The position numbers were made by a program, and so were the translations under genes. This document shows, piece after piece, positions 1,126-64,000 of a stretch of 64,000 nt of DNA; the first letter of the stretch is position 1; each line of letters opens with the position of its first letter. Source of the DNA: an uncultured bacterium (GTDB taxonomy: Bacteria; JAGOEH01); assembly GCA_964632485.1 (NCBI GenBank), contig CAZWDO010000001.1, positions 293,631 through 357,630 of the forward strand. Direction: 5' to 3'. A model generated the notes under the pieces. The model made no database searches. It was given only the letters and a program-made list of their open reading frames with translations, and had not been told where the DNA came from.

Positions 1126-1145
1126 TTTCCAACACTCCTCTTTTC

Positions 1146-29165: not shown

Positions 29166-30254
29166 TTGAGCAACAATCCACCGACGGATGAAATCATCCA
29201 GGAAAACCTGGAACTACGCAAACAAATCAAAGAAAAAGATCATATTATCGATAAACTCAATCAGCTCATTCAAGTCAATTCTGTAATCTCTTCATCTCTG
29301 GAACAGAACAAAGTATTGAAGAACCTGATTGATCAGACGATTTCGTTGCTGAACTGCGAAAAATGCAATATACTAATGGTCGATTTTGAAAACAATCAAC
29401 TGCGCTACGAAATTGTCAGCGACGATGAAGAAATGGAAAAATTGAAACGGTTGAACCTTGAATTGGGAGAAGATGTCGCGGGAACGGTTTGGAAAATAGG
29501 GAAACCGCTCCTGATTGACGATCCGCGCAAGGATTCACGTTTTCTGATGCTAAGCGATAATATCACTGGAAATATGACTCAATCGATCATGTCCATCCCC
29601 CTGGTCGTAAACGGCCGCATATTAGGCGTTATGGAAGCTATCAATAAAAAAGACAACGAATCTTTCGACTATTTCGATCTGGACCTCTTTCAACATTTAT
29701 CGATACAGGCGGGGATTGCCATTGAAAATGCCAAACTCTACGAAGCGGGAATTACGGATGGCATGACCAAACTTTATATCCATAAATATTTCCAGGAACG
29801 ACTGCTGGAACTGACCCGATCCTCCGAGCGCTACCGATTCCATGTCGCGTTGGTTATGTTCGATATCGATCATTTCAAAAAGTTTAATGATACTTATGGC
29901 CATCAGATAGGGGACGAAGTGCTGAAAATGACGGCGAAAACCCTTCGTTTATCCGTACGATTGAGCGATATCCCTTGTCGCTATGGCGGGGAAGAGTTCG
30001 CCATTATTTTGCCCCACACGAATCTCAAAGGCGCAAAAACTATGGCCGAACGGATTCGTAAGACCATTGAAAAAACTAAAATCGAGTATGATCGAAAGTT
30101 AATTAACGTGACAATTTCAGGGGGAGTCGCCAGTTATCGCGAGAATAACTGCAACAGTACGGCCGAACTGATCAAAAAGGCCGACCAGGCGCTTTATAAA
30201 GCTAAAGAATCCGGCCGCAACCAAATTCTGACATTTTCCAATAAAGAAAAATAG
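29166..30254 (+). CDS. GAF domain-containing diguanylate cyclase (GGDEF)
   Basis: N-terminal coiled coil plus a GAF-like region; C-terminal GGDEF domain with an intact RYGGEEF active site and an inhibitory-site-like RxxD. Confidence 0.88.
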   Translation: MSNNPPTDEIIQENLELRKQIKEKDHIIDKLNQLIQVNSVISSSLEQNKVLKNLIDQTISLLNCEKCNILMVDFENNQLRYEIVSDDEEMEKLKRLNLELGEDVAGTVWKIGKPLLIDDPRKDSRFLMLSDNITGNMTQSIMSIPLVVNGRILGVMEAINKKDNESFDYFDLDLFQHLSIQAGIAIENAKLYEAGITDGMTKLYIHKYFQERLLELTRSSERYRFHVALVMFDIDHFKKFNDTYGHQIGDEVLKMTAKTLRLSVRLSDIPCRYGGEEFAIILPHTNLKGAKTMAERIRKTIEKTKIEYDRKLINVTISGGVASYRENNCNSTAELIKKADQALYKAKESGRNQILTFSNKEK

Positions 30255-30431: not shown

Positions 30432-31601
30432 ATGAAAACCGTCAACACGACTCGCATGTTGTTCGTCTGGACCTGGATACTCGGCCTGGCGCTCATGCTG
30501 AATGCCGATCCCATGGGAAACGGCAATGGACAAGGTAATGGAGGTCCGGGCAATGGACAAGGCCACGGAGGCCCGGGTCAGGGACGCTGGAACGATCGCC
30601 AACATCCCCCTTTCAACGCTCACTGGATCGATTCCGCGCAATGGGTAGAAACCAGCGGAACCGTTATTATCGACACGCTGTTCCGTCGCGACCACTATTT
30701 CCTGGATACGAACCAGGACCAGACCGCCGATCTACTGCTGAATTTCGGTCCATGGTGGTACCTGCCTGAAGGAATGACCCGCCCCAATGCCGGTGAAACC
30801 ATCAATGTAAAGGGATATCAACACGCGATCCCGGCTCAGCCCCCGCGTCCTCCACGACCCAATCAGTCCTGCGACAGCCTGCGTCCCGAAAATCCATTGC
30901 CGGTGGATTCGGCTTTAGCGGTTGTGGAACTCAACGGTCAAATCTGGCGCGACAGCAGCCAATGGACTACCCCGCCGGATAGTGGCTTCCCCTTTCGTTT
31001 TAATCGCGACAGCCTGATAACAGTCAATGGCATCGTACTGGTTGACAGCATCACTAATACCGTCTTCCCCATCTACCAGTTAGATATTGATAACGATAAT
31101 CTGCCTGATTACATCCTGGGTCTGGGCCCCCGCCACCGTCTTAGCCAGGCCGAATTGCCGGAAGTCGGATCCACGATCGAAATCGAGGGATTCACTCGCG
31201 AAGCGCGCCCCAATGCGCCCATTGACTTACCGGTATTAGTCGTTTATAAACTGAATGGCCAGATATGGATGCCGCTCAATGGCCGGAACAACCCTGACAT
31301 TCGTGGAAATGGCATGAATTCAGAAGCCAAACTGAAAAGTTCCTGTTTCCCCAATCCCTTTAACCCCACCACTACCATTAGCTACACACTGAGTGAAAAC
31401 ACCCAGATTCATATAGAAATTTTCAATCTCTACGGACAGTGGGTCCGTACTTTGCAAAACGGTTATCAAAATGCCGGGGCGTATCAGGTGACCTGGCAGG
31501 GCGACAACGATACCGGTCAAACCGTCGCCGCAGGAACCTACTTCTATGTAATCCGCACGGATAACTCTCTGGATTCCCGCAAGATTCTGTTCTTAAAATA
31601 A
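30432..31601 (+). CDS. Secreted Gly/Asn/Gln-rich protein with a T9SS C-terminal sorting domain
   Basis: Signal peptide; low-complexity GNGNGQGNGGPGNGQGHGGPGQG; C-terminus ...IEIFNLYGQWV...GTYFYVIRTDN...KILFLK is a T9SS CTD. Confidence 0.7.
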   Translation: MKTVNTTRMLFVWTWILGLALMLNADPMGNGNGQGNGGPGNGQGHGGPGQGRWNDRQHPPFNAHWIDSAQWVETSGTVIIDTLFRRDHYFLDTNQDQTADLLLNFGPWWYLPEGMTRPNAGETINVKGYQHAIPAQPPRPPRPNQSCDSLRPENPLPVDSALAVVELNGQIWRDSSQWTTPPDSGFPFRFNRDSLITVNGIVLVDSITNTVFPIYQLDIDNDNLPDYILGLGPRHRLSQAELPEVGSTIEIEGFTREARPNAPIDLPVLVVYKLNGQIWMPLNGRNNPDIRGNGMNSEAKLKSSCFPNPFNPTTTISYTLSENTQIHIEIFNLYGQWVRTLQNGYQNAGAYQVTWQGDNDTGQTVAAGTYFYVIRTDNSLDSRKILFLK

Positions 31602-33599: not shown

Positions 33600-35546
33600 A
33601 TGAAAAGCTATATCATGTCGTTGATGCTGATCGGCGCAATATTGGCCGGTTTATTTTTCTATCTACGCACTGAACTGAACCGCCGCACCATTGAGCTTTA
33701 TGAAGAAATCTATATTAAAAAAACGACGACCTTTGCAATTTCATTCAAACGAATTATCTCCCAGCAAGATTTATATGAAAATTATTTTTTTAAACAACTT
33801 GAGGCGTTGCAAGTAAGTAGCCACACTCAATTTCAAGGGAGAAACTCCGAGAATCATTCCGGAGTTATTGTGATCAGAATTGATTCGAACGGTTTAATCA
33901 TCGATTCCGGAACGTCATCCACAGCGCCGGATATTTTGAAATTTATCCAAACCAATATCGAGCAATGGAACGATACCCAAGAAACCAACAGTATCGTTTA
34001 TTTCGGCATGGAAGCAATTGATAGTATTCTTGTTTATATGTTAGTCAAATCCACACCCACAGGGTTCATTCTCAGTGGCATTCAGCTTCCCCTTGAGCAG
34101 CAGTTCGAAGATATTTTCAACATGGCTCATTTTTTTAACGAATACTACCGGCTCAACCAATTCGCCTATCTTTGCTGGCAAGACGATTTGGGCATTATTG
34201 CCGCATCGCCTCCCTATCTGATGCTGAACCGCATTGAACAGGATACTTTTCTTCAGCAAACCGCGGGTCATAAAATCCGACGCCACGTTTTTCAGGGCCA
34301 GTCCATTTTGGAAGTGATCATCCCCTTTGCGCCATTGGATACTCCATCAGGAATCCTGCGGTTGGGTTTTTATCCTACTGAAATGGACACGGAAATAACT
34401 CAGGCAACCCTGCAACTGGCATTGATGCTGGCCGCTATCTGGCTAGTTTTAAGTATGGTCAGCGGTTATATCTGGCATCGTCAGAAAATCAATTGGCTCA
34501 ACCAGCAATATTATAGTTTATCAAACTATACCGGCTTGATTCTGGAAATGATCGATGATGGAATTATCGTAATAGACGGGAGCGATGACTTACGATATTC
34601 AAACCCGGCGCTGGGACAGATTCTGGGATTTATTCCTGACAACGGAAGTTTAGATAAAAAAATATTGCAGGAGCTACTTCCATGGGCAGCTATTACTCAA
34701 CAAACACAAGGAGAACTTCAAGTCACTAATTATCAAGGCGATCCGCTATATTTACTCTTCAGCGGACGTTCAATTCAGGATTCCCGGGGAGCGACCCAGC
34801 GATTAATTCTTTTACGGAATTTGACATCCTACAAAAAACTGGAAGAAAAAAGCCGGCAAATCGAACGACTTTCCCTGCTGGGTAAAATTTCTTCGATGAT
34901 GGCCCATGAAATCCGCAATCCACTTAACACCATCAGCATGATCATCCAACGCCTTCAAACGGAATTCCAGGTCCGCGAGAATACAGAGGAATTTCTTTAT
35001 ATGGCTCAGCTTATCAGTCGGGAAGTTCTAAGGCTGAACCAACTTGTCAAACGATTTCTTGAATATGGACGGCTTCCATTACCCCAGAAAGATTGGTTTC
35101 CAGTTCGACAGCTATTCAACGAATTGGAAGTGATGATTGGCTATTGGAGTGCCGAAAAACCTTATCGTTTCACACTGGAGATTGAGTCGACGGAACTCAG
35201 GGCCGACCGGGAGCAACTTTTTCAAGCGCTCTTGAATTTATGCCAAAACGCCTGGCAAGCGTTACCGGAAGAAGCCGGCGTTATCACTATTGAAGGCCGA
35301 CTTCAAAAAAAACGCTATCTGATAACCATCACAGACAATGGGGAAGGGATTCCAGACCATTTGCAGAGCAAGGTCTTCGATTTATATTTTACGACAAAAA
35401 AAGATGGTTCGGGATTTGGCCTTCCTATCACCCAACGAATTATTGAAGACCATGGAGGCCACATCGAAATGGAAAGCAAACCCGCGCAAGGGACCCGGAT
35501 TATGATCGATTTACCTCTGGCTTCGGAAGACAAGGAGCGGCGATGA
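33600..35546 (+). CDS. Sensor histidine kinase (periplasmic sensor - TM - PAS - HisKA - HATPase_c)
   Basis: Two TM segments flank an approximately 250-aa periplasmic domain. H-box SMMAHEIRNPLN; N, G1 and G2 boxes (DNGEGIP, GSGFGLPI). Confidence 0.88.
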   Translation: MKSYIMSLMLIGAILAGLFFYLRTELNRRTIELYEEIYIKKTTTFAISFKRIISQQDLYENYFFKQLEALQVSSHTQFQGRNSENHSGVIVIRIDSNGLIIDSGTSSTAPDILKFIQTNIEQWNDTQETNSIVYFGMEAIDSILVYMLVKSTPTGFILSGIQLPLEQQFEDIFNMAHFFNEYYRLNQFAYLCWQDDLGIIAASPPYLMLNRIEQDTFLQQTAGHKIRRHVFQGQSILEVIIPFAPLDTPSGILRLGFYPTEMDTEITQATLQLALMLAAIWLVLSMVSGYIWHRQKINWLNQQYYSLSNYTGLILEMIDDGIIVIDGSDDLRYSNPALGQILGFIPDNGSLDKKILQELLPWAAITQQTQGELQVTNYQGDPLYLLFSGRSIQDSRGATQRLILLRNLTSYKKLEEKSRQIERLSLLGKISSMMAHEIRNPLNTISMIIQRLQTEFQVRENTEEFLYMAQLISREVLRLNQLVKRFLEYGRLPLPQKDWFPVRQLFNELEVMIGYWSAEKPYRFTLEIESTELRADREQLFQALLNLCQNAWQALPEEAGVITIEGRLQKKRYLITITDNGEGIPDHLQSKVFDLYFTTKKDGSGFGLPITQRIIEDHGGHIEMESKPAQGTRIMIDLPLASEDKERR

Positions 35547-36901
35547 GTCAAACCCTTTTATTGATTGAGGATGAAAAATTCCAGGCTGATATTCTCATCG
35601 GGTTTTTGGAAAAAAATGACTGGAAGGTGCAATGGGCGCCATCACAAAAAACTGCGCTGGCGATGATTGAAAAAGAACCGTTTGAGCTGATTGTCTCGGA
35701 TTATCGGTTGCAGGACGGCAGTGGAGAGGAGGTACTGGAACATTTGCAAACGCTTCAAAATGCCCCGCCCTTCATCCTGGTTACCGCTTTCGGAAATATT
35801 GAACTTGCCGTCCGCATGATGCAAAAAGGGGCTTACACCTTCATCGAGAAACCGATCAATCTAAACAATCTATTAGAAAATATCAAACGGGCCGGAGAGA
35901 AAAAGCGATTGCAAGAAGAGAACCGGATACTGAAAGCTGATCTCAAAAAGATGGGTTCAAGCCCAATCATACACCAGAGTCGGTTGATGGTTGACCTGCT
36001 CAAATTAGCGGGACGAGCGGCTGAAACGGATGCCACGATTATAATTTACGGCGAAAGCGGCACAGGAAAAGAGTTGCTGGCGCGCTACATTCACGAGCAA
36101 TCAAAACGAAACGCGAAAAATATGGTGAATGTCAATTGCGCAGCGCTATCACCGACGCTGCTGGAAAGCGAGCTCTTTGGTCACGTAAAAGGCGCGTTCA
36201 CCGGCGCCGACACCCATCGAATGGGCCGGTTCGAACAAGCGCATCAAGGCACTCTTTTCCTCGATGAAATTGGTGAAATCAGTCCTGAAATCCAGGTCAA
36301 GCTACTGCGCGTACTCCAGGAGAAAATCATTGAACGAGTAGGCAGTAACCAACCGGTCAACGTCGATATCCGACTAATTACCGCTACAAACCGCAATTTG
36401 GAAGAAATGATCCGTCAAGGCGCCTTTCGTTCCGATCTCTTCTTTCGCTTGAACGTCTTTAATATCGAAATACCACCCCTCCGCAACCATACCGATGATA
36501 TCATTCCGTTGACCCAGCATTTTATTCAACGGTTTGCCCGACAATACCGACGTCCCCTTGAAGGAATATCCGACAGCGCCTTGCAAAAATTAATGAACTA
36601 TTCCTTCCCAGGCAATATCCGAGAACTGCAGAATATTATAGAGAGATCGATCATCACTGCCGATGGAATACAAATCAAAGAAGATGATATATTGATAAAA
36701 AACGCCCGGCCCGTTCCCGCGGACACTACCGAAGGCCTGATGTTGGAAGAAAAAGTTGCTCAACTTGAAAAAAATGAAATACTATTAGCCCTTCGTGGAC
36801 ACCCGGGGAATCAAACCCGAGCGGCAAACGCACTCGGAATTACCGAACGCGTACTCCGTTACAAACTGCAAAAGTACCACATCGACAGCGCCCGCGCTTA
36901 A
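35543..36901 (+). CDS. Sigma-54-dependent response regulator (NtrC family: REC - AAA+ sigma-54 activator - Fis-type HTH)
   Basis: Receiver Asp in LIVSDYRLQDG. Walker A GESGTGKE; GAFRSDLFFRLNV (the ESELFGH/GAFTGA region is present as GHVKGAFTGA); C-terminal HTH. The start overlaps the histidine kinase stop (ATGA). Confidence 0.9.
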   Translation: MSQTLLLIEDEKFQADILIGFLEKNDWKVQWAPSQKTALAMIEKEPFELIVSDYRLQDGSGEEVLEHLQTLQNAPPFILVTAFGNIELAVRMMQKGAYTFIEKPINLNNLLENIKRAGEKKRLQEENRILKADLKKMGSSPIIHQSRLMVDLLKLAGRAAETDATIIIYGESGTGKELLARYIHEQSKRNAKNMVNVNCAALSPTLLESELFGHVKGAFTGADTHRMGRFEQAHQGTLFLDEIGEISPEIQVKLLRVLQEKIIERVGSNQPVNVDIRLITATNRNLEEMIRQGAFRSDLFFRLNVFNIEIPPLRNHTDDIIPLTQHFIQRFARQYRRPLEGISDSALQKLMNYSFPGNIRELQNIIERSIITADGIQIKEDDILIKNARPVPADTTEGLMLEEKVAQLEKNEILLALRGHPGNQTRAANALGITERVLRYKLQKYHIDSARA

Positions 36902-37031: not shown

Positions 37032-37538
37032 TTAATTGGGGAGCTGGGGATACCAGTCATCCTCGCGAATTCGATCGACCTTAGCCACCAGGACCTCCCC
37101 GGTGCCGCTATGGAAAGCCACTTTACGACCGCGATTCAATCCAGTATCTTCACTTATAATAACCACTCGTTTTAATTCAAGGATACGGCGGCCAATCTGA
37201 ATATTCTTGGCGCCAATTTCCGGAGTATAGTTCGCGGAACGAAAATTTTCCGCGCCGCCAAACAGATGCGCTTCTAAATCGGAAACATGCGACCCGGCAT
37301 CGATAAACATGTTTACCATGTGGACAACCCCGGGGAAAGCATAATGAGCCGTTGCGCAATAGGCATTCTGCGCAATGGGATGGATATAATAAATCATTCC
37401 CCCAAAACGCCTGATCTTATCAAAGATGGCGATAATGCCCCCCGATCCAAGAGCGGTATATAGAATCGCCGGTTCAAACAATACATAAATATAACCCGGT
37501 TGGACAAAAATTCTTTTTTCCGAGAACTCAGTTTTCAT
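37032..37538 (-). CDS. cheD: CheD-family (chemoreceptor glutamine deamidase-like) protein with the catalytic Cys replaced by Gly
   Basis: CheD blocks are present: LGSGGIIAIFD (canonical LGSCVAV), HLFGGAENF, DTGLNRGRKV. The GSC cysteine is G here. Confidence 0.75.
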   Translation of the reverse strand: MKTEFSEKRIFVQPGYIYVLFEPAILYTALGSGGIIAIFDKIRRFGGMIYYIHPIAQNAYCATAHYAFPGVVHMVNMFIDAGSHVSDLEAHLFGGAENFRSANYTPEIGAKNIQIGRRILELKRVVIISEDTGLNRGRKVAFHSGTGEVLVAKVDRIREDDWYPQLPN

Positions 37539-37632
37539 TCATTCTATAACCGTTCTGTTGATGAATAATCATCCAAACGCTATTACAAATTCCATACCAT
37601 ATTTTTAACCGATCGCGCTTGAATAAAATCAA

Positions 37633-38241
37633 TTATTTTTTACGATAGAGTTGAGCATCAACAACAACCTGCTCAAATTGGACAAGTAGCTCTTCCGGCA
37701 TTTTTTGTGTTTGTTCCATTACCAGTAAACCATGGGGCATTAATGATCGGTAAAACATTTCAATTACAGATATCCGCTCCGAGGGCTGGAAATGCAATAA
37801 TACATTTTTACACACAATCAGAGAAATATCATCTTGAATGGGTTTAAGTTCAAGCAAATCAAGCTTGCTGAAACGTACACGGTTTCGAATCGAATCCACA
37901 AGCCGCCAATAATTATTTTCATGGGATTCAAAATATTTCTGGAAATAGTCCGCAGGAATGCGTTCCAGCTCAGAAAATGGATAGACCGCCTTTTCTACAA
38001 TCGGACCGAATTGATCATTGGGATCCAAATCGGTCGCCAGTACCTGAACGTTTTTAAAAGCAAAAGTCCCCATAAATTCAGCCAACAGAATCGTTAAAGT
38101 ATAGGGTTCCTGTCCCATAGCGCACCCGGCATCCCAAATACGGACAATGCTGCGTCCGGCGACCAGGGGGAGTAGATGCTTAACGGCCAGTTCCAAGGTA
38201 TGCGAATCACGGAAAAAGAACGTAAAAGCCATACCAATCAC
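37633..38241 (-). CDS. cheR: CheR-type protein-glutamate O-methyltransferase, catalytic SAM domain only (no N-terminal helical domain)
   Basis: Starts directly at the TFFFRD motif; SAM-binding VRIWDAGCAMGQEPYTL; 202 aa against about 280 for canonical CheR. Only 22 nt separate it from the upstream gene, so there is no room for a missing N-terminal domain. Confidence 0.8.
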   Translation of the reverse strand: MIGMAFTFFFRDSHTLELAVKHLLPLVAGRSIVRIWDAGCAMGQEPYTLTILLAEFMGTFAFKNVQVLATDLDPNDQFGPIVEKAVYPFSELERIPADYFQKYFESHENNYWRLVDSIRNRVRFSKLDLLELKPIQDDISLIVCKNVLLHFQPSERISVIEMFYRSLMPHGLLVMEQTQKMPEELLVQFEQVVVDAQLYRKK

Positions 38242-38263
38242 AACCTTTCTATGATCAAATTTA

Positions 38264-38866
38264 TCAATGTTTTATCGCAGTTGACATTTTTACGTTTTCC
38301 AGTGAACGCCGTAACATTTGAGTGACATTTTGATCGATTGCCGGGCCATGTCCCGGAAAAATAACTCGAATCGAAATACTTAAAAGCATTTCAAGATATT
38401 CGCCGAAATGGGGTGTATAGCTCCCTTCGGAGGTTTTGATATCAAGAGGAGTGTCACCGGAAAACAGCCACCCTTCCTGGGGCAAATAAATAGATACAGA
38501 ATCACTGGAATGCTCACTAACTGTAAATATCAATCCCTCGCTATCGCCGATCGGAATTATTTGCTGGCGCTGAAGAGTGTCAGCCGGTACGGATAGATTG
38601 CCCAGAGCCCATACCCGAGGATGAAACTGCTCGACAATCGCTTTTAATCCGCCCGTATGATCAAAATGATTATGGGTGAGAATTACCTGCTCCACGCGCT
38701 TTTTTCCGACTCCGGTCGAAAGCTCCATAATATGCTCTATAATCTTATCATCAATACCGGTATCAATAAGCGTATTGACATCACTCAGTTTATTCCAATC
38801 TCCCAATACCATATAAGCATTAGAACTATAAAGATGAGGATTGCTTCGGAGTTTAATAACTTTCAT
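38264..38866 (-). CDS. MBL-fold metallo-hydrolase
   Basis: The THNHFDHTGG (HxHxDH) motif and downstream His/Asp ligands; 200 aa. Confidence 0.8.
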   Translation of the reverse strand: MKVIKLRSNPHLYSSNAYMVLGDWNKLSDVNTLIDTGIDDKIIEHIMELSTGVGKKRVEQVILTHNHFDHTGGLKAIVEQFHPRVWALGNLSVPADTLQRQQIIPIGDSEGLIFTVSEHSSDSVSIYLPQEGWLFSGDTPLDIKTSEGSYTPHFGEYLEMLLSISIRVIFPGHGPAIDQNVTQMLRRSLENVKMSTAIKH

Positions 38867-38965
38867 GGGTATTCAATTTGGAATTGCGCTGGTTTATCAT
38901 GTTCAGACCTCAAATCTTCCAAGTCAGGCAATTTAGACATCAATTATTGGTTAAAAAGAAATAAA

Positions 38966-39475
38966 TTACAGCAGACTTTTCACCCGGTCGATGATTTCTA
39001 TCGTCAACCCAAAGAGAATTCCTCCCGAGATGCTGGCTGCCAACTCAGTCCGAAAACGCGCGGATCGTTCGGAAACTGTGCGGGAAATATAATATAACAG
39101 TAGAGAAAACAAAATAGAAGCAGCAAGGTAGATTAAAAGCATATAGGCCAAACTAAAGGTTTTATCCAAATATTTCAAAAACCAATTAACTCCAAAATAA
39201 ACTAAAGAAGCAAACGCACAAAAAAGGGTTTCCTTCAGATAAGTCATCCGATTCACTTTAGCAAGTTTGACGGGGATAAAAAAAAGGGTGATATAAGCCA
39301 CGATGGAAAAAACAACCAAAGCTGCCAGAAGTTTAATTCTGACAAGGTGTTCAAATGAGCTGGTATAGGTCTGCAAATTCACGCCGCCGGATCTGCCCTT
39401 AACCAGCAGATACAATAAAACAATTAAAACCAAAGCGCCGGCCATCAGAATCAGATCGCGCTTTTTTCGAGTCAT
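38966..39475 (-). CDS. Integral membrane protein (4-5 TM), hypothetical
   Basis: Hydrophobic 169-aa ORF lying in the same-strand gene string between the M20 peptidase and the MBL hydrolase. Confidence 0.5.
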   Translation of the reverse strand: MTRKKRDLILMAGALVLIVLLYLLVKGRSGGVNLQTYTSSFEHLVRIKLLAALVVFSIVAYITLFFIPVKLAKVNRMTYLKETLFCAFASLVYFGVNWFLKYLDKTFSLAYMLLIYLAASILFSLLLYYISRTVSERSARFRTELAASISGGILFGLTIEIIDRVKSLL

Positions 39476-39607
39476 GGCAAATCCTTTTTATAAATTTGAA
39501 AATAGTTCATAAAATTCGTCGCAGTTCCATTTCGCGCGCCCAATCATTCCGGACCCCCAGGCGCTTAATCTCCCTACGGGGGAGACTAAGCGACAAATCT
39601 ATAGGGT

Positions 39608-40846
39608 TCAAGCCAAAAGATCGATAGCGACTAAAGCCGTCATGTGGGCAAAATCAATCAGTTGCTTAATTTCAACCGATTCATTGGCCACGTGAAATGC
39701 ATTATCATCTCCCGGCCCCCATCCAACTGCAATAATTCCATTAAGGTTAAGGCTTTTGGCATAAGTGCCGCCGCCCATTCCAAAAGGTACGGGTTTGAAA
39801 CCGAGCATTTCAATGGCATTTTCCTGGATCGCTTTAACAACACGATTCTCAGGGTCGCATCCATGAGGATCATTCCAGGACATAACTTCAATTTTGAAGT
39901 TCCCCTGCTCGACCTTTTCCGTACATTGAGTTAATTGAGAAATAACTTTATCTTTAGTTATTCCAGGAACTGTGCGGATATCAATGTAAATCACGCAAGT
40001 ACCGGGGACAATGTTCGGCGCTGCCCCGCCATGAATTTCACCCAAATTCAAACTGGGATGTCCCAACATGGGATGGATTTCATAATCGAATTTGAGAATC
40101 TCCAATTGATTGACCAGCTTTGCCATCATATAGACAGCATTGATTCCCCGTTCCGGCGTAGCTCCATGGGCTTGTTTACCAAATGCCGTAATTTTAAACA
40201 CGGTCCGGCCCTTTTCTGCCACATCGATTTTCTCCATATTTTCACCAATATCGGGAATAATAGCAAACGTGGGATTGATAAGTTTTTCTTCCAGGAGATA
40301 CTTGATCCCATAATCAATGCCATCAGGGTCAGCGGCTTCTTCGTCCGACAGGGCCGCAATTTGCAATTGACCCGGCAATTGGGAAGCTACACCTGTTTTC
40401 TGCAGGATTTCCGCAGCAATTAAAATCGCAACCAGAGGTCCCTTGTTATCCAAAACCCCACGTCCAATTAGCTTACCATCCTTTTCCGTCACACTAAATG
40501 GGTCTGAGTCCCAACCTTCACCGGCGGGAACGATATCCATGTGCCCCGGCATAAGCAGCCGCTTACCATTCTCATTTTTGCCTAAATAGCCAATCAAATT
40601 GGGCCGGCCTTCCTGGCGGGCAAACGTTTTAAATGGAATATCCAAAGCATTCAATTCCCTCTGGATAACCGCCGCTACCCGATATTCTTCACCCCGAAAT
40701 TTCAGATAAGGATGTTCAGGAAGCTTTTCGCTCACAACATTGACCGTTTTTTCTTTCACTACTTCCCTGACCAGTTCGATCAGTTTTTGTTTAAGCTCAT
40801 CATAATGCGCCTGAAAATATTCATTGACACGCTGCTTGGCTTCCAT
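39608..40846 (-). CDS. M20-family metallopeptidase (ArgE/DapE/Cpg2-like)
   Basis: MPGHMDIVPAGEGW metal-binding motif and the dimerisation-domain pattern. The start is at 40846 (MEAKQRV) with a strong AAAGGAG Shine-Dalgarno site 5 nt upstream; the track start at 40864 contains that site. Confidence 0.85.
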   Translation of the reverse strand: MEAKQRVNEYFQAHYDELKQKLIELVREVVKEKTVNVVSEKLPEHPYLKFRGEEYRVAAVIQRELNALDIPFKTFARQEGRPNLIGYLGKNENGKRLLMPGHMDIVPAGEGWDSDPFSVTEKDGKLIGRGVLDNKGPLVAILIAAEILQKTGVASQLPGQLQIAALSDEEAADPDGIDYGIKYLLEEKLINPTFAIIPDIGENMEKIDVAEKGRTVFKITAFGKQAHGATPERGINAVYMMAKLVNQLEILKFDYEIHPMLGHPSLNLGEIHGGAAPNIVPGTCVIYIDIRTVPGITKDKVISQLTQCTEKVEQGNFKIEVMSWNDPHGCDPENRVVKAIQENAIEMLGFKPVPFGMGGGTYAKSLNLNGIIAVGWGPGDDNAFHVANESVEIKQLIDFAHMTALVAIDLLA

Positions 40847-41167
40847 AGAAACTCCTTTCGACAAAAATTGATACTAAAATAACACACGTCACCAAAACAA
40901 GTCTATAAAACCGTAATATTCGCATTGCCAACTCCCCCCAAAAAATACACGTCCAGAAAAAACACCTGTTTTAATCGATATTCTCGGTTCCAGATACCTG
41001 TTTTAGATTCCCGTCAACTTATTTAAAACGTTTTGGGCTGATTTAAATCATCTGTATCTATAATATGGTAATTTATTTTCAATGTCAATAAAAAAAACTT
41101 GCTTTTTCTTTTTTTTTAAATTATATATGAATAAAGTTAGTTAATAACATAAATCAGACAGGCGAAA

Positions 41168-42328
41168 ATGTTCAATGATTTAACTGGTAAAACCAAAGAC
41201 AAAGATCAAATTAAAACAATTCTCGAAAATGCCACTAATGTACATGTGAAGTGTGAACTCAAATGTGGTGAAAAAGTTGCCTATGGCATGCTTAACAGCA
41301 TTGAAGATAAGCAGATAATAATTTTCATAAAAGGATGTAATAAAGAGGATTTAAAAAAATGCGAGCTATTTTTCTTCTTATCCGGTTATCTGTTTGATTT
41401 TGAAACTGCCATCCAAGCCTTGGAAGATAATTTTTTCCATTTTTCTTTTCCTCCCAGACTTCATTACCGGCGGCGAGACAACCGGCTTGAATTCTCGCGG
41501 AGCGCTTCTTCCGATGATGAAGAACAACCTGTGTTTTGCGATATAAATAATCAGAGCCAATGCATAATTGGAAAACTTCTGGATTTAAGCAAACGGGGGA
41601 TTGGTTTTAAACCTGAAACAGCCTTTATTGATTTGAAATTAAAAAAAAATGACACCCTTTCAAATGTCTTTTTTTACCTTGATGAATCAAATATCATCAT
41701 TGAGGAATCTGTAATACGGAACATTAATAATCAAACCGTGGGACTTGAATTTACGAAAATCACCGATTTTTTCAAGAAAAAAATCAGTGATTTTATTATT
41801 ATTGAATTGCGCAAGCGTGATGAAGAGGAAAAACAAAAATTTCTAAGGGAAGCATTTCCTGAGCGTTATCGGAAACAACAGGAAAATTCCGAAAAATTAC
41901 TTTTTACAACACAAGTACCTTCAAAGGATATACCAACGGTTTATGATCCTAAATCTTATCGTGTTCTGGTCTTCGATTATAATCCCAATATTTATGAATT
42001 AATACAGCACACTTACCAAACGTATTACACCCGGGAACCGGACCAGGGACGGATCAATCTGATTAAAAATTCGCCCCATATCCTGCTTACTTCGCTTTAT
42101 CCCGCCAAATCCAATATGGATAAACTTAAATGGCTCAATTTAATTAACGAATCGAAAAGCCGTAAAGTACCCATTGTAATCATTTTTGAACAGATGCTGG
42201 AAAAAGAGAAAATCATCGCCGCTTTAAAAATGTTTGGCGCTTCGGATATAATCATCCGCAACATTATGACGCATAAAGAAACCGTATGCGAACGAATTGA
42301 CCGATTGCTTAAAAAAATATACCAATGA
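41168..42328 (+). CDS. PilZ-domain c-di-GMP receptor fused to a degenerate receiver-like C-terminal domain
   Basis: RRRDNRLEF (RxxxR) followed by DLSKRGIGF (DxSxxG) are the two PilZ c-di-GMP binding motifs. The C-terminal YRVLVFDYNPN...PIVIIFEQ resembles a REC fold lacking the phospho-acceptor context. Confidence 0.6.
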   Translation: MFNDLTGKTKDKDQIKTILENATNVHVKCELKCGEKVAYGMLNSIEDKQIIIFIKGCNKEDLKKCELFFFLSGYLFDFETAIQALEDNFFHFSFPPRLHYRRRDNRLEFSRSASSDDEEQPVFCDINNQSQCIIGKLLDLSKRGIGFKPETAFIDLKLKKNDTLSNVFFYLDESNIIIEESVIRNINNQTVGLEFTKITDFFKKKISDFIIIELRKRDEEEKQKFLREAFPERYRKQQENSEKLLFTTQVPSKDIPTVYDPKSYRVLVFDYNPNIYELIQHTYQTYYTREPDQGRINLIKNSPHILLTSLYPAKSNMDKLKWLNLINESKSRKVPIVIIFEQMLEKEKIIAALKMFGASDIIIRNIMTHKETVCERIDRLLKKIYQ

Positions 42329-50992: not shown

Positions 50993-51622
50993 TCACTCTT
51001 TCGCCTGGTTAATCTTTGATTTTATTTTTTTCATTCTAAAAAATTCTTCTTTTTCCAACTCATCCAGAATATCAGTAATTTTTCTGACCGTTTCCTGATA
51101 TTGGGGGATAAAAATATTGGCTAATGCGTTAACCCGGCGATTATTCCGTTTAATTTCCTCAGCCAGGCGCTTAATTGAAATATAGACTTCCGCCCATTTG
51201 AGGAGTTTAGGCACCATTTTTTGTATAGAAAGCGTCGCCGAATTTATTTCAAAATTACTTTGGGTCAATGTAACGGGATTCACCTGCTCAGAAAACTCCT
51301 GCAATTCAATTTGCGGAATATAAACACCCATAACACTTTTTTCAAAAATCTCAATCTTGAAATCATCCTGCCGGTGCTCCACCAATCGATCAAACTGGCT
51401 CTGTCCCAAAAGAGTAATCCCTTTTCTCACATACTGGACAGTACGGTTCAACTGTTCCTGGATATCGGAACTAACCTGCTTCAACGCATGTACCTGAGAC
51501 ATAAACTCTATCATCAGAACTTCACGTTTTTGCTGTAGCAATTCATGGCCCTTTTTTGCCAGTTTAAGGCTATCCTTAGTTTTGAGTAAATTAGTACGGG
51601 TCGGTTTTACTTTAAGCGACAT
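50993..51622 (-). CDS. atpD: V-type ATP synthase subunit D
   Basis: N-terminus MSLKVKPTRTNLLKTKDSLKLAKKGHELLQQKRE is typical of the V/A-type D stalk subunit. Confidence 0.88.
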   Translation of the reverse strand: MSLKVKPTRTNLLKTKDSLKLAKKGHELLQQKREVLMIEFMSQVHALKQVSSDIQEQLNRTVQYVRKGITLLGQSQFDRLVEHRQDDFKIEIFEKSVMGVYIPQIELQEFSEQVNPVTLTQSNFEINSATLSIQKMVPKLLKWAEVYISIKRLAEEIKRNNRRVNALANIFIPQYQETVRKITDILDELEKEEFFRMKKIKSKINQAKE

Positions 51623-51636
51623 AGTGAAATACCTGG

Positions 51637-53028
51637 TTAAAAATCTTCAGGAAGGAGATCAACATAGTATTGGCTAATCTGTTCCTCGGTGACACGATTT
51701 AGTTCTTCTCGCGGAAGAATTGAAATAGCCTTCCAACCCAATTCCAGGGTTTCCTCTATTGAACGGTTAGCCATTCCCTGGCCAATGAAAAAAGTTTCGA
51801 ATTTATCGCCAAATTTTAGATATTTTTTGTCAGTATCTGATAATTCTTCTTCTCCGATAACCGAAGCAAGCGATCGCACCGATTGGACATTGGCATAAGC
51901 GGCATACAATTGGCTGGAAAGATTGGGGTGATCCGGACGGGTCATATCTCCACCGATACAATCCTTCATTAAACGCGAGAGGGAAGGAAGCTCTTCAATT
52001 GGTGGATAAATATTTCTAGCGTGAAGTTCACGGGATAAGACAATCTGGCCTTCAGTAATATAACCGGTTAAATCGGGGATAGGGTGAGTTATATCATCAT
52101 TAGGCATTGAAAGAATCGGAATTTGAGTAATCGATCCATTCAGATTTTTAATTCGACCGGTACGTTCATACAACGCGGCTAAATCACTGTACATATAGCC
52201 GGGATATCCTTTTCGGGAAGGGATTTCTTCACGGGCTGTGGCTATTTCGCGCAAAGCCTCACAATAATTGGTCATATCTGTTAAAATCACCAGGACATGG
52301 TAGTTAAGGGTAAACCCGAAATACTCGGCAGTTGTTAATGCCGCCCGGGGAGTAACCAACCGTTCAATAGTGGGATCGTCGGCCAGATTCAGAAAAAAGA
52401 TCACACGATTCATAGCGCCTGCAGATTGGAATTCATTAATAAAATAGTCAGCGTCGTCATGTTTGACACCCATCGCGGCAAAAACAATAATGAATTGTTC
52501 CCCGCTGCCGATTTTGGCCTGTTTAACGATTTGTGCGGCCAATTCATTATGCGGCAAACCTGCGCCGGTAAAAATTGGTAGTTTTTGTCCACGAACCAGC
52601 GTGTTCATTCCATCGATCCCTGAAATTCCAGTTTGAATAAAATTGACCGGATATTCTCGTGAGACAGGATTGATCGACATCCCGTTCACATCAAGAAACT
52701 GTTCGGCCACAATAGGAGGATGGCCGTCAATGGGTTTTCCGGTACCATCAAAAATTCGCCCCAGCATTTCACGGGCGACCCCAATTTGCTGGGTGCGCCC
52801 TAAAAACCGAACCCGGGTGGAATCTTTATTAAGTCCATAGGACCCTTCAAAAATTTGAATCGCCGAATAATCGGCGCTTACTTCCAGCACAGTTCCATGC
52901 CGGACATGCCCCTGGCTATCGGTAATTTCAACCAGTTCATTGTATCCGACATTTTGAGTGTTCTCAACAATAACGATCGGGCCATCAGCCCGGCTGATTC
53001 CCAGATACTCACGATGTATCCACTTCAT
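51637..53028 (-). CDS. atpB: V-type ATP synthase subunit B (non-catalytic)
   Basis: 463 aa; conserved B-subunit blocks ([27 protein letters not shown]). Confidence 0.9.
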
Positions 53029-53042
53029 AGCGATCCTTCCGT

Positions 53043-54821
53043 CTATTTTGAATAGATCAGTTCAAGTTTGAGCATATCATCATCGATGATAGACTGGACT
53101 TGTTTCAGGTCATCCATTTGATCATTGGTATATTTGTATTTCATACGCAACAGCGTTTCTCTGACCGACAGGCTATTAATACGGGTAACCGGGCATCCGC
53201 CGGTAATTACCTTACGAGCCTTTTCATAAAAATGTCGGATAAGGGAAAACATCAATAGTTGTTTTGCAGGGGAGCAAAATGTATCGATTGGATCAAACGC
53301 AGCTTGCTGCAAGAAAGCCTGTTTGATAATTTTTGCGATTTCTATAACTAAGCGTTGTTCATCCGGCAAGGCATCCTGACCGACCAGTTTCACGATTTGC
53401 TGAAGTTTCTCTTCTTGTTGCATAATATCCATTCCCCAGGCGCGCAAGGCATTCCAATCAACATCCGGGGCAATTCCCTGCCAATAGGAAAGTACATAGG
53501 ACACATATTGGCTATAACTTTCCAGCCAGGAAATAGCTGGAAAATGGCGCGCTCCGGCCAGTTCTTTATTCAATGCCCAAAAACAGCGGGTAAAGCGTTT
53601 CGTGTGCATCGTAACCGGTTCGGAAAAATCACCTCCGGGAGGAGAAACCGCGCCGATAACGGTTACAGAGCCTTGGCGGTCAGCAGTAACATTAACCCGG
53701 CCTGCGCGCTCATAAAATTCCGCTAAGCGGGAAGGCAAATATGCAGGATAGCCTTCATCCGCAGGCATTTCTTCCAAGCGACCCGAAATCTCACGCAAGG
53801 CTTCTGCCCAACGGGAAGTCGAATCGGCCATTATCGCTACGTTATAGCCCATATCCCGATAGTATTCACCCATGGTAATTCCCGTATAAATACTCGATTC
53901 ACGAGCAGTAACCGGCATGTTTGACGTATTGGCGATCAAAATAGTCCGTTCCATTAACGGTCGTCCCGATTTAGGATCAATCAAATGGGGGAATTCATCC
54001 AAAACCTGCGTCATCTCATTTCCCCGTTCACCACAGCCGATATAGACAATAATGTCCGCATCGCTCCATTTTGCCAATTGATGCTGAGTTACGGTTTTTC
54101 CAGTACCGAATCCTCCGGGTATTGCCGCCACTCCGCCTTTTACGATCGGATAAAAAAAATCGATAACCCTCTGACCGGTTACCAGGGGCAAGGTCGGACT
54201 CAACCGTTGGTGAATAGGCCGACCTTTTCGAATTGGCCAAAAATGGTACATCGGCAATGCGTGGATTTTTCCCTTATCGTCTTCAATCTCAGCGACAATG
54301 TCATCAATCACATATTCCCCGGCAGGCAAAATTTTTACAATTTTGCCCTGGATACCAAAAGGAACCAGAACGCGATGGACAACCAAAACAGTTTCAGGCA
54401 CTTCCCCCAGAATTGTATTGTAACTGACAGACTGGCCGATTTCCACTTTGGGCTCAAATTTCCAGGATCGCTTTTCATTAAGCGCTAATATATTAATCCC
54501 GCGGCGAATGAAGGGAACCTGGCTTTCCTGCAAAATCCGGTCCAAAGGGCGTTGGATTCCGTCAAAAATTGATCCGATCAATCCCGGCCCCAATTGGGCA
54601 GATATGGGCTTCCCCGTCTGGATTAACGGATCTCCGGGCTTCAGTCCACTGGTATCTTCATATACTTGAATAACAACATATTCAGAAAATATCTTAATAA
54701 TTTCACCGATCAGCTCCTCTTCCCCGACAAAGACCTGTTCACCCATTTGTGGATTCAACGTATCCTGCGCCTGGACAACCGATCCAGTTACTTTTTTTAT
54801 CTTTCCAGGATTTGTATTCAT
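53043..54821 (-). CDS. atpA: V-type ATP synthase subunit A (catalytic)
   Basis: Walker [10 protein letters not shown]. The likely start is MNTNPGK at 54821, whose ATG overlaps the subunit E stop (ATGA). Confidence 0.9.
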
Positions 54822-55423
54822 GAGCGCTCCCAAATAGTTTGGAAAATTTTATGTTTCTTATCATCATACCAATCATTAAAAATCGATTCCAGTCGTAAAT
54901 CAATAAAAACATGGCATTGGGAATTCTCAACAATAAAGCCGCCTGCCATATTTTCTGCTACTACTTGGGGGACTTTTCCGTTATGATAGTTTTTTTCCAG
55001 ATATTCAGAGCAAAGCGAGCAATCCTCTTTACGGGTTCTGACTATCGAATTTTCATCTTCCCAATATTTACGAGTCGCTTCAAGAGAAGCGCAATAAAAT
55101 CCATGATATTCATCCGTCGCAACCCATTGGTTAAGAAGCGCCAACACGCAATCTTTAATTTTTCCATAGAATTCATGTTTTTGCTCTAATTGACGCATGT
55201 TGGCATCCATTTCCAGCGCGGCCTTTTTCCGTGAAACCTCCTGCTCCGCGTTTTTTTTAAACTGGACAAGGTAAAGTTCCCGTTGATGTTCCGCTTGTTC
55301 GCGAAAAGGCCTAAGATTTCTTTCCTTAGCTTTTTCCGCCAGAGAAAGAATACTCTCGCTCTCCTGGTTGGCTTTATCTAAAACCGCTTTAATCATTTTT
55401 TCCAGATTTTCATCATTATACAT
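54818..55423 (-). CDS. atpE: V-type ATP synthase subunit E
   Basis: Coiled-coil N-terminus; C-terminal GGFIVEN motif typical of V/A-type E. Confidence 0.75.
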   Translation of the reverse strand: MYNDENLEKMIKAVLDKANQESESILSLAEKAKERNLRPFREQAEHQRELYLVQFKKNAEQEVSRKKAALEMDANMRQLEQKHEFYGKIKDCVLALLNQWVATDEYHGFYCASLEATRKYWEDENSIVRTRKEDCSLCSEYLEKNYHNGKVPQVVAENMAGGFIVENSQCHVFIDLRLESIFNDWYDDKKHKIFQTIWERS

Positions 55424-55457
55424 ACGCTTCCCTTTCAGGAATTATGACAATCAAAAC

Positions 55458-55766
55458 TTAAAATTTAATACCCACAATCTGTTGGATATATTTTTGGATA
55501 TCCTCTTCCCGGGGAGATTCTCCGGCGTTGGGCACTTCCATAAAAAGAGGTCGAGTCAGGTTCTGAAACTCATCGAAATCTTCTTTTAATAATTCTCGGA
55601 TGAAGCGGTTAAAGATGACCAGACCGATCTCCTCCCTATCCAGAATTTTTTTGAGTTCAAATTTCAAATCCGTCATGGAGATATCCTCCGCTACAATCTG
55701 ACCCTGGATACCAATCAGGGAAAAAGCGCGAACAGTTATCTCATCACCAACTACATAAAGTTTCAT
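55458..55766 (-). CDS. atpF: V-type ATP synthase subunit F
   Basis: 102 aa; MKLYVVGDEITVRAFSLIGIQG matches the F subunit. Confidence 0.8.
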   Translation of the reverse strand: MKLYVVGDEITVRAFSLIGIQGQIVAEDISMTDLKFELKKILDREEIGLVIFNRFIRELLKEDFDEFQNLTRPLFMEVPNAGESPREEDIQKYIQQIVGIKF

Positions 55767-55769
55767 CGC

Positions 55770-56138
55770 TTAAATTTTTGTTAAAAGGATAATGCTGACT
55801 ATCAAACCATAAATCGCAATGCCTTCAGCTAAGCCCACAAATATTAAAGCGCGTCCAAAGAGTTCCGGTTTTTCAGTGATAGAGCCGATAGCGGCGGCTC
55901 CGACATTAGAAACAGCAATTCCAGCGGCAATAGCCGACAAGCCGGTAGCCAATGCAATCGCAATATACCCTAAGCCTGGATTTAAATTAGTCGGCGCGGC
56001 AACCGGTACGCTGCTCACCGGGGTGGCATCATGCTCTTGCGCATGGACCAACGCCACTAAAAAAATAGCGGCGGCAAAAATAATAATCATTCGGTTCACT
56101 TTTGACATCATTTCAAGGGTCTTACCCAGTTTCATCAT
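55770..56138 (-). CDS. atpK: V-type ATP synthase subunit K (proteolipid c-ring), 2-TM hairpin form with an N-terminal extension
   Basis: Gly/Ala-rich helix (GLSAIAAGIAVSNVGAAAIG); a conserved carboxylate in helix 2 (GLAEGIAIYGL). Confidence 0.8.
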   Translation of the reverse strand: MMKLGKTLEMMSKVNRMIIIFAAAIFLVALVHAQEHDATPVSSVPVAAPTNLNPGLGYIAIALATGLSAIAAGIAVSNVGAAAIGSITEKPELFGRALIFVGLAEGIAIYGLIVSIILLTKI

Positions 56139-56155
56139 AGCTTGCTCCTTTGAAT

Positions 56156-58147: not shown

Positions 58148-58149
58148 AA

Positions 58150-59088
58150 TTACTCCCCATGAAATGAATAGCCGATAATCATATTTTGTAGTTCGTCCGG
58201 AGCCAGTTGGTGATACTTTCCATTAATTAATATATTTAAATTGTGAAATTCCAAATGTAACAAAATAAAAAAAGCTATAAAATAGGAATAACGAAACGGA
58301 AAACCGCTTAATTGCTTTTTAGCGACTCCGAATAAAGCGCTTTGAATCCGGGTTTCATTCTGAGCGGGCGATTGTGGATCAAAAACAGCCACTAAAGGGT
58401 GGGCAGAAGAATGATTCAAGTAATCGCCTCGTAAGATACCCTCAATATGAAGAATAATATCATTGGAACCCTGCCGGATCAGATAAACCTGCAACGGCTC
58501 AACTGCTATTTGATAAATATAGCTCAATTCGTTGATAATTTTCAAATTATGATAATCCAGCCAATAGGAGATTATTTCCCGGGTTGCCGAATCAGTATCC
58601 AATTGAGTGAGCGTAGTTATTATTGTTTGCGCAAACGATTGCAACAATTGCGATTCATAATAAATAACCGGATGCCGATCTTTTTCCTGATTGTACTGAT
58701 CGATAATTTTAATGATATCGGAAGGAGATCGATTCGGGATTGACATTACCGATTGCAAACGGTAGGCGCTTCTCAGATTCGATATAGTCTCTTGAAGCAT
58801 CTCATAAACCACGAAAATCTGAGTGAATTCGCGGCTCTTACCTTGCGAAAACCGTTTAAGGAGAACAAAAAAATGAGTATATGCGCCTTTCAATTGAGCT
58901 TCGAGCTTTGCAGGGGTTATACCATTCAAGGGCTCAGGGAGAATGGCTGCATATTTTTGATTAAAAAAACTGATTAAACTGGTTAAACTATCAGCATGAA
59001 TCATCCGGTTCAGTTCCAAACGGTTCAATATAAAGGTTTTGTAAAACGAAATAATAGGGAATCCGGCAAAAAACGCGGCAGGCAGCAT
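58150..59088 (-). CDS. atpC: V-type ATP synthase subunit C (d-subunit)
   Basis: 312 aa, all-helical, and positioned between G and I in the operon. Confidence 0.65.
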   Translation of the reverse strand: MLPAAFFAGFPIISFYKTFILNRLELNRMIHADSLTSLISFFNQKYAAILPEPLNGITPAKLEAQLKGAYTHFFVLLKRFSQGKSREFTQIFVVYEMLQETISNLRSAYRLQSVMSIPNRSPSDIIKIIDQYNQEKDRHPVIYYESQLLQSFAQTIITTLTQLDTDSATREIISYWLDYHNLKIINELSYIYQIAVEPLQVYLIRQGSNDIILHIEGILRGDYLNHSSAHPLVAVFDPQSPAQNETRIQSALFGVAKKQLSGFPFRYSYFIAFFILLHLEFHNLNILINGKYHQLAPDELQNMIIGYSFHGE

Positions 59089-63361: not shown

Positions 63362-64000
63362 TTAATTTTTTTTTCGTAATCGAGATGGCAGAATACCCAT
63401 TTTTTCACGGTATTTTGTCACCGTCCGTCGAGCGACAACAATTGAATGCTCGATTTTGAGAATTTCAACAATTCGATTGTCGCTGAGTGGATTGTCAGTG
63501 TCCTCGCGCTCAATTTGCTGTTTAATCAGCTCCATGACCAGGCGCGCGGAAAGGTCTTCATCGTTGTCATCATTTTTTAGCTTTGCGCTAAAAAAATATT
63601 TCATATTAAATACGCCGTACTCGGTTTGCATGTATTTATTATTGACAATCCGCCCAACAGTCGTTGGATGGACTCCGATTTGATCAGCGACATCCTTCAA
63701 TGTTAAGGGTTTTAAACATTCCGGACCATTAATAAAAAATTCATGTTGCGCGTTAACCAGATTGGCCGCTATTTTTTTGATTGTTGATTTTCGTTGTTCG
63801 ATTGCATCAATCAACCATTTAGCGGCATTCAAGCGCTCTTTAAGATAATCCTTGCCGGTTTCAATACTTTTGTCATCATTCTTTAACAGCTTTTGGTAAT
63901 ACTGATTAATACGCAAATGAGGGATCCGGCTGTCATTCATAAAAATATTCAGATCATCCCCATTACTCTTTTCTACAATAACATCCGGAATGACTTCACG
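63362..64000 (-). CDS. rpoN: RNA polymerase sigma-54 factor RpoN (C-terminal part; N-terminus beyond the window end)
   Basis: RpoN box ARRTVTKYREKMGI and the HTH GVHPTTVGRIV. The track start MNDSRIP is internal; the frame stays open to the window edge. Confidence 0.85.
   Translation of the reverse strand, partial: REVIPDVIVEKSNGDDLNIFMNDSRIPHLRINQYYQKLLKNDDKSIETGKDYLKERLNAAKWLIDAIEQRKSTIKKIAANLVNAQHEFFINGPECLKPLTLKDVADQIGVHPTTVGRIVNNKYMQTEYGVFNMKYFFSAKLKNDDNDEDLSARLVMELIKQQIEREDTDNPLSDNRIVEILKIEHSIVVARRTVTKYREKMGILPSRLRKKN

Follow-up and report, generated by a model that had tools for sequence, protein, structure and literature searches.

What do a CheR-type methyltransferase and a CheD-like protein do when they are encoded side by side in a stretch of DNA that holds no other chemotaxis (che) genes? 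This question is raised by a 64,000-nucleotide stretch of contig CAZWDO010000001.1 from an uncultured bacterium (hereafter, the window), in which the two genes follow those for a metallo-β-lactamase (MBL)-fold hydrolase, a membrane protein, and an M20 peptidase. In textbook accounts of bacterial chemotaxis, adaptation through CheR/CheB methylation, along with CheD deamidation, provides the memory. An earlier note on the window had taken the pair for an orphan, repurposed modification module or a pseudo-enzyme scaffold that acts on a target other than a chemoreceptor. Our analysis points elsewhere. The MBL hydrolase, the N-domain-less CheR (short CheR), and the CheD-like protein form a trio (37032-38866, minus strand), each family of which is at home in chemosensory clusters, and a kinase cluster of the cognate type is encoded ~30 kb from it. 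The trio is most economically read as a dispersed set of variant covalent-modification (adaptation) proteins for a chemosensory array; we consider this reading probable, with the nearby STAS-response regulator (RR)-CheA-CheW cluster as the system most probably served.

A short CheR paralogue without the N-terminal domain

The short CheR matches the PF01739 profile (135.1 bits, E = 2.7e-39, cutoff 27) over positions 2-181 of 195, and a Pfam scan gave no match to PF03705, the N-terminal all-helical receptor-recognition domain. It aligns with the CheRs of Salmonella (1AF7/1BC5) and B. subtilis (5FTW) from their residue ~70-83 on, with no large gaps. Since the DNA 5' of the gene, whose more likely start codon opens the protein with MAFTFFFRD, is filled by the MBL gene, no N-domain is encoded there and none is concealed by a frameshift. 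The domain is truly absent, as the earlier note had claimed.

In the numbering of Salmonella CheR, we take the catalytic Arg and Tyr to be residues 98 and 235. Alignment to the solved CheRs revealed that Arg98 is retained in the window protein as part of FFRD, whereas Tyr235 (CRNVMIYF in Salmonella) is replaced by His (CKNVLLHF), so that the window protein has one residue of the pair. Both residues are catalytic in Salmonella CheR (PMC3447774). The replacement is shared by the family: His occupies this position in 79 of 83 distinct short CheRs and in none of the 47 full-length CheRs encoded at the same loci, 39 of which have Tyr. Judged from these alignments, the Tyr235-to-His change is diagnostic of the short CheR paralogue. 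The S-adenosylmethionine (SAM) motifs and Arg98 are conserved across the family.

A homology search with the short CheR returned 3002 proteins, and the best 120 of them, from many phyla, are nearly all 197-221 aa long (four exceed this length, with a maximum of 245 aa), have PF01739 as their sole domain match, and share 56-64% identity with the query. Among species-representative genomes (GTDB), we found at least 577 short CheR loci, again in many phyla, with a best match of 64-65% identity. The NCBIfam equivalog for CheR (NF007902) was not reached (69.7 bits; cutoff, 435). By its sequence relationships, the short CheR is a distinct paralogue family and not a private truncation.

Pairing of the short CheR with an MBL-fold hydrolase

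We annotated 80 genome loci of the short CheR by phmmer with reference proteins from Pfam-annotated loci, covering flanks of up to 10 kb on each side. In this analysis, 78 loci had space for a gene directly downstream of the short CheR, and in 58 of them, spread over many phyla, that gene encodes an MBL protein. From the short CheR stop codon to the MBL start codon, the distance is usually -4 or -1 nt, a spacing indicative of translational coupling between the two genes. The hydrolase, which had been regarded as mere context, is thus a conserved partner of the short CheR.

The surroundings of the pair are chemosensory. MCP (methyl-accepting chemotaxis protein), CheA, or CheW genes occur within 10 kb in 72 of the 80 loci. 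For the 59 short CheR-MBL pairs, the gene upstream encodes CheA in 23 and CheW in 15 cases, and the gene downstream encodes an MCP in 36. A Geobacter relative and a Bacteroidota metagenome-assembled genome (MAG) have the order MCP-STAS-RR-CheA-short CheR-MBL (~200 aa)-MCP, and a MAG with a protein named for Wallbacteria has CheW-MCP-short CheR-MBL-MCP-MCP. Two look-ups that started from MBL homologues led to the same cluster, STAS-CheA-short CheR-MBL-polyHAMP MCP-CheW-CheR-CheD-CheB. Across the 80 loci, a canonical full-length CheR is encoded in 39, CheB in 31, and a CheD in 17. In the metagenome that also holds the contig of the window, a contig from another organism (JGI 3300020048, contig Ga0207193_1004129; L119) carries MCP-RR-STAS-CheA-short CheR-MBL-MCP-CheW-CheR, with an unusual gap of 390 nt between the short CheR and MBL genes.

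The window MBL protein matches PF00753 (68.4 bits, E = 1e-18) and is 44-47% identical, at equal length, to the MBL proteins encoded 3' of short CheRs in che clusters. It has the HxHxDH motif (H65, H67, D69, H70) and the downstream ligands H119, D138, and H173; every metal ligand is kept, and all are invariant, with 27 invariant columns among 34 sequences. The AlphaFold (AF2) model has a mean predicted local distance difference test score (pLDDT) of 94.8, and its best Foldseek matches are LACTB2, YcbL, GloB, and BcII. In Pfam scans, no window protein, the MBL protein included, matched PF01339 (CheB_methylest).

Alternatively, the MBL protein might sense a metal, a redox state, or a small molecule and thereby regulate the short CheR or the adjoining MCP, in which case the pair would be a signal-input device. 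ODP, an MBL-like di-iron oxygen sensor, signals to a soluble chemoreceptor in Treponema/Thermotoga. Precomputed ODP (PF19583) matches exist for many homologues of the window MBL protein, whose own score stays below the gathering threshold (19 versus 27.2 bits), and flavodiiron proteins are among the fold matches. In addition, the MCP gene lies directly 3' of the pair in 36 of 59 cases, and 31 of the 80 clusters already have a CheB. These points are set against a hydrolase-type HxHxDH motif with full H/D/H ligands, whereas di-iron flavodiiron/ODP proteins have HxExDH, and against the best sequence and fold matches, which are hydrolases (LACTB2, glyoxalase II/YcbL, and BcII). We therefore view a sensor role as rather unlikely.

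Full-text searches of open-access literature on CheR with MBL, on CheR without its N-domain, and on STAS clusters brought up no account of the short CheR/MBL pair. A survey of Geobacter che genes and a paper on CheR-TPR describe neither this pair nor the CheD clade treated below.

A conserved CheD clade without the catalytic Cys

The CheD-like protein matches PF03975 (70.3 bits, E = 1.8e-19, cutoff 25). Its AF2 model, of moderate confidence (pLDDT 69.7), has T. maritima CheD as the best Foldseek match in the PDB (2F9Z_C; TM-scores 0.67/0.73, E = 4e-10), and both domain and fold are thus those of CheD. None of the NCBIfam CheD equivalogs was reached (best, NF041119, 85.6 bits; cutoff, 240). The catalytic triad of CheD consists of Cys27, His44, and Thr21 (PMC7022378). 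In the alignment to 2F9Z, Cys27 corresponds to Gly33 (in LGSGG) and His44 to Tyr50, while Thr21 is kept as Thr28; hmmalign and MAFFT alignments with relatives gave the same assignment. Two of the three triad residues are therefore replaced. The Cys-to-Gly change stood out to the earlier note, and proper alignment bears it out; the note had held the remaining CheD blocks to be retained, which is true of the Thr and overlooks the loss of the His.

These replacements are not peculiar to the window. The nearest homologues of the CheD-like protein (42-48% identity) all lack the Cys, having GSG, GAG, or GSS instead. We searched a profile of this CheD clade against 1.84 billion cluster representatives (50%-identity clusters), of which 86 scored below 1e-30, and read the residues at the Cys27 and His44 positions in the best 150 together with the window protein. 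Cys/His was found in 58 sequences, Gly/His in 39, Gly/Tyr in 15, Ser/His in 14, and Ala/His in 6, and the best 30 matches are mostly Gly/Tyr and Gly/His.

Collectively, the Cys-less CheDs form a large conserved clade that is encoded in che clusters, often beside a canonical CheD. Paucidesulfovibrio has the order CheA-CheW-MCP-MCP-CheD*-CheR-CheB-CheD-CheY-CheX-CheX, where CheD* lacks the Cys and the second CheD has both Cys and His. Genes for Cys-less CheDs lie beside those for MCP, CheR, CheB, or CheA in loci L003, L004, L005, L081, L092, L093, L096, and L109-L111. The gene is directly 3' of the MCP gene and before the CheR and CheB genes in L092, L093, and L096, and it is 3' of the CheA gene in L005. 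Tandem CheDs between a response regulator and CheA, the first with Ser for Cys and the second canonical, are found at L109:7564-8663, L110:1979-3078, and L111:3-1054. One Spirochaetales locus (L081) unites all the families of the trio in the order CheA-CheW-short CheR-MBL-MCP-CheD(G/Y)-CheR. A full-text search of open-access literature on CheD catalytic residues brought up no account of the Cys-less clade.

Since two of the three triad residues are gone, the fold is kept, and the Cys-less clade is large and conserved, the CheD-like protein is very probably a pseudo-enzyme, in line with one of the two ideas put forward in the earlier note. Binding can matter more than catalysis for CheD. Indeed, the B. 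subtilis CheD variant F102E deamidates normally, binds CheC and receptors weakly, and yields a taxis defect equal to that of a cheD null (PMC3513319); this phenotype indicates that CheD binding outweighs catalysis and provides a precedent for a non-catalytic CheD. By analogy, the window protein is a probable non-catalytic receptor-binding paralogue.

A chemosensory kinase cluster on the same contig

Pfam scans of the ~45 open reading frames (ORFs) that span the window detected no MCPsignal, CheA (Hpt/H-kinase_dim), CheW, CheB, or flagellar domains, and phmmer with Che reference proteins retrieved only the five genes of the string themselves. The reported absence of MCP, CheA, CheW, and CheB genes from the window is thus correct. 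We extended the analysis to 10 kb of contig on each side (~84 kb in all), using for the 3' flank a locus of the HPr-kinase gene (JGI 3300020048, Ga0207193_1000002; L116) that maps to window coordinates 52054-73040. This flank contains a che cluster (L116:1-4551; Table 1) that begins ~4.5 kb past the window end and lies ~30 kb from the trio, so that the pair is an orphan within the window and not on its contig.

The CheA of the contig cluster has Hpt, dimerization, HATPase, and CheW domains (Pfam). When compared with three reference CheAs, it scored 427 and 415 bits against the two that are encoded beside short CheR-MBL pairs and 380 bits against the third. Moreover, in other genomes it is a STAS-RR-CheA arrangement that stands before the short CheR. 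The CheD-like gene, too, is ~30 kb from CheA and CheW on the same contig, and the relatives in its clade sit inside chemosensory clusters. No che genes were found in the 10 kb before the window start.

The earlier note had also treated all five genes as one string. Five minus-strand ORFs with short gaps do lie head to tail at 37032-40864, with 22-31 nt between the MBL stop codon and the short CheR start codon and ~95-130 nt in the remaining gaps. As a functional unit, the string did not survive neighborhood comparison. Homologues of the M20 and membrane proteins were found by phmmer in none of 105 related loci (80 from genomes and 25 from metagenomes), which leads us to reject the five-gene string as a unit. 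The M20 peptidase and membrane protein are neighbors of the trio and not parts of it.

The same comparison bears on the idea that the five genes are an operon repurposed for methylation/deamidation of a non-chemoreceptor target, e.g., a membrane or peptide substrate. In its favor are the single strand, the gaps of ~20-130 nt, the lack of a convincing terminator, and a single strong promoter-like match ahead of the M20 gene, as well as the window's lack of che genes, a situation with parallels in 8 of the 80 short CheR loci, which likewise have no MCP, CheA, or CheW gene in their flanks. Nevertheless, besides the missing M20 and membrane-protein homologues, all three che-like families (short CheR, MBL, and Cys-less CheD) are embedded in MCP/CheA/CheW clusters of relatives, and the contig has its own che cluster 30 kb off. 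A non-chemoreceptor target of this kind is accordingly very improbable.

Detachment from the che cluster, an unusual gene order, and a CheD without catalytic residues might also be expected of an inert remnant of a broken che cluster that is heading for loss. The state of the genes argues otherwise: none of the three ORFs is disrupted, their lengths are typical of their families, every family-invariant residue is kept, and the Gly/Tyr state of the CheD-like protein is a conserved feature of its clade and no private lesion. We find decay scarcely credible.

A proposed dispersed adaptation set and the points against it

If the trio is a dispersed adaptation set, the short CheR would bind SAM and methylate some part of the array, with the signaling domain of an MCP as the likeliest substrate. 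Lacking the canonical N-terminal receptor-recognition domain, it would probably rely on a partner or on a different mode of docking. The translationally coupled, binuclear-metal MBL protein would reverse or control this modification and hence be a non-homologous analogue of CheB; its putative esterase role rests on functional analogy. The CheD-like protein, with a CheD fold and predicted to be unable to deamidate, would serve as a receptor-binding or kinase-modulating subunit, in the manner of B. subtilis CheD, which acts so independently of catalysis. By the same analogy, it may bind receptors without modifying them.

Several observations weigh against this reading. No MCP gene was seen on the ~84 kb of contig. 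The frequent presence of canonical CheR (39/80) and CheB (31/80) means that the pair is an addition to CheR/CheB and not their simple replacement. The short CheR has no adjoining MBL gene in 20 of the 78 loci, and the 8 of 80 loci with no MCP, CheA, or CheW gene in their flanks, several of them cut by a contig end, make a stand-alone function possible. Sequence and fold searches of the PDB with the MBL protein gave generic small hydrolases only and no functional lead. The order found in the window, with MBL before the short CheR, did not recur in the 80 loci. We saw an MBL gene followed by a short CheR gene in just one further case, the locus of the closest relative of the window short CheR (L011; 64% identity), where short CheR-MBL-short CheR (245-2212) precedes a photolyase-like gene and no che genes occur in the 8 kb downstream.

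In addition, the loss of the N-domain and the change of Tyr235 to His could mean a different acceptor. The pair might then modify something other than an MCP, namely CheA, CheW, a STAS protein, a response regulator, or a small molecule. Such an acceptor would fit the invariance of the His, the many clusters that combine the pair with canonical CheR and CheB, suggestive of a role that is not redundant with theirs, and the frequent location of the pair 3' of STAS-RR-CheA. It would be harder to reconcile with the MCP gene that most often directly follows the pair and with the retention of Arg98 in a CheR C-domain that, including the region of the β-subdomain, aligns to canonical CheR without large gaps. 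On balance, we judge a non-MCP acceptor improbable.

An extension of the dispersed adaptation set can be offered tentatively. It is possible, if somewhat doubtful, that the short CheR with its His at position 235 and the MBL protein run a second reversible modification cycle on the array, with the MBL protein as a CheB-independent demodifier and the CheD without Cys and His as a reader or blocker; the trio might then represent a complete shadow adaptation set present in many phyla.

Other features of the locus and its surroundings

Table 1. Coordinates and assignments of features at the locus and in the che cluster of the contig (window coordinates)
Feature	Position	Strand	Basis
M20 ArgE/DapE-family deacylase, 412 aa from ATG 40846	39608..40846 (ORF to 40864)	-	TIGR01910, PF01546, PF07687
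Multi-pass membrane protein, 169 aa, no family	38966..39475	-	No significant Pfam/NCBIfam match
Small MBL-fold metallo-hydrolase, 200 aa, partner of short CheR	38264..38866	-	PF00753
Short CheR paralogue, 199 aa from ATG 38232; alternative GTG 38241	37633..38232 (ORF to 38241)	-	PF01739
CheD-like protein, 168 aa, without catalytic Cys and His	37032..37538	-	PF03975
Sigma-70-like promoter match TTGACA-17-TATTAT, 11/12, upstream of M20 gene	41060..41088	-	Consensus match only
STAS protein, 93-aa ORF, single-domain response regulator, CheA, CheW, Hpt-containing protein (cut by locus end)	~68.5-73.0 kb	+	Pfam scan

The M20 deacylase exceeded the subfamily cutoff of TIGR01910 (244 bits; cutoff, 217.6) and matches both its catalytic and dimerization domains (PF01546 and PF07687). 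Pfam and NCBIfam scans of the membrane protein gave no significant match. A promoter and terminator scan yielded fewer matches in the region than in shuffled controls, and only the 11/12 site upstream of the M20 gene stood out. This site could drive the whole string; it is a consensus match only, and promoters of the Fibrobacterota-Chlorobiota-Bacteroidota (FCB) group differ from the sigma-70 consensus used. Between the M20 and membrane-protein genes (39520-39607) lies a short G+C-rich inverted repeat, TCTCCCCCGTAGGGAGA, with no T-run, which the terminator scan did not call.

A two-component pair, made up of a histidine kinase and a response regulator of the sigma-54-dependent type, is encoded on the plus strand at 33600-36901. 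The stop codon of the first gene overlaps the start codon of the second, and the two run convergently toward the CheD-like gene, 130 nt away. Conserved synteny of the trio with this two-component pair was considered and rejected, as the NtrC-like matches in ~10 loci (e.g., L118) have generic family-level scores. The other window neighbors had no matches, or isolated ones only, in the related loci. Divergent from the M20 gene, a 386-aa protein (41168-42328, plus strand) has a marginal PilZ match (23 bits; cutoff, 22.5) and may be a cyclic di-GMP receptor; a GAF-GGDEF cyclase is encoded at 29166-30254.

Type I restriction-modification genes (hsdR, hsdS, and hsdM) are interleaved with Bro-N and KilA-N genes at window positions 436-4142 and in the 5' flank (L117:10001-17555), which hints at the insertion of a mobile or phage-derived element where the window begins. 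Type IX secretion system (T9SS) C-terminal sorting domains (Por_Secre_tail, FlgD_ig, and CHU_C) are present in three proteins (9651-12140, 15073-16536, and 30432-31601) and point to an FCB-group-like organism. At the other end, a 192-aa ORF with Sigma54_DBD only (63362-64000) represents the 3' portion of an rpoN gene (489 aa) that the window end truncates (L116:8210-9679). This rpoN heads an rpoN-hpf-hprK-ptsH-ptsI-EIIA string, beside a V-type ATPase operon (50993-59088).

Significance and comparison with known systems

The widespread N-domain-less CheR, its MBL partner, and the Cys-less CheD clade point to an extra layer of receptor modification. The MBL partner looks obligate and lies between CheA/CheW and MCP genes in Bacteroidota/Ignavibacteria, Acidobacteriota, relatives of Geobacter and Syntrophia, Firmicutes, Spirochaetes, and candidate phyla. 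The Cys-less CheD clade is a natural experiment that speaks for the view of CheD as a protein that acts by binding and not by catalysis. In databases, the three proteins carry the routine labels CheR family methyltransferase, MBL fold metallo-hydrolase, and chemotaxis protein CheD. The lesson for annotation of the window is that the pair is not an orphan and that the peptidase and membrane genes are no part of the system. The window instance itself is a displaced copy, which lessens the surprise of the orphan claim; it is the family-level pattern that is of interest to chemotaxis specialists.

Compared with the CheRs of Salmonella (1AF7/1BC5) and B. subtilis (5FTW), the short CheR has a homologous SAM-binding C-domain (E = 4e-16 to 2e-21), with the GxGxG-type SAM motif, ATDxD, and the Arg98 of FFR(D/E), and its family is likewise encoded in MCP/CheA clusters. 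It differs in lacking the whole PF03705 domain, in the invariant His at the position of Tyr235, and in being paired with an MBL protein, often beside a canonical CheR. The CheD-like protein shares with T. maritima CheD (2F9Z) and B. subtilis CheD the fold, the Pfam family, and Thr21, and its clade is found beside MCP, CheR, and CheB genes. Set apart by Gly for Cys27 and Tyr for His44, the window clade has a C-terminal I-R-x-x-D-W-Y-P motif and an RGRKV block of its own, and the Cys-less protein is often accompanied by a second, canonical CheD.

The MBL protein invites three comparisons. With YcbL/GloC (2XF4), GloB (7L0B), and LACTB2 (4AD9), it shares a minimal ~200-aa MBL fold and the HxHxDH motif with downstream H, D, and H ligands at only 18-24% identity, and it is MBL proteins of the window type that are coupled to a short CheR in chemosensory clusters. 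With ODP, it has in common an MBL fold, a location beside an MCP gene, and weak PF19583 similarity; it remains below the Pfam cutoff, has HxHxDH in place of the di-iron motif, and is coupled to a methyltransferase. Finally, in the proposed model it would take the place of CheB as the hydrolase that opposes a CheR-type methyltransferase, which it adjoins in che clusters. This likeness is a functional analogy only: the MBL protein has neither PF01339 homology nor a receiver domain, its binuclear-metal MBL fold is not a Ser-His-Asp hydrolase, and CheB itself is often encoded in the same cluster.

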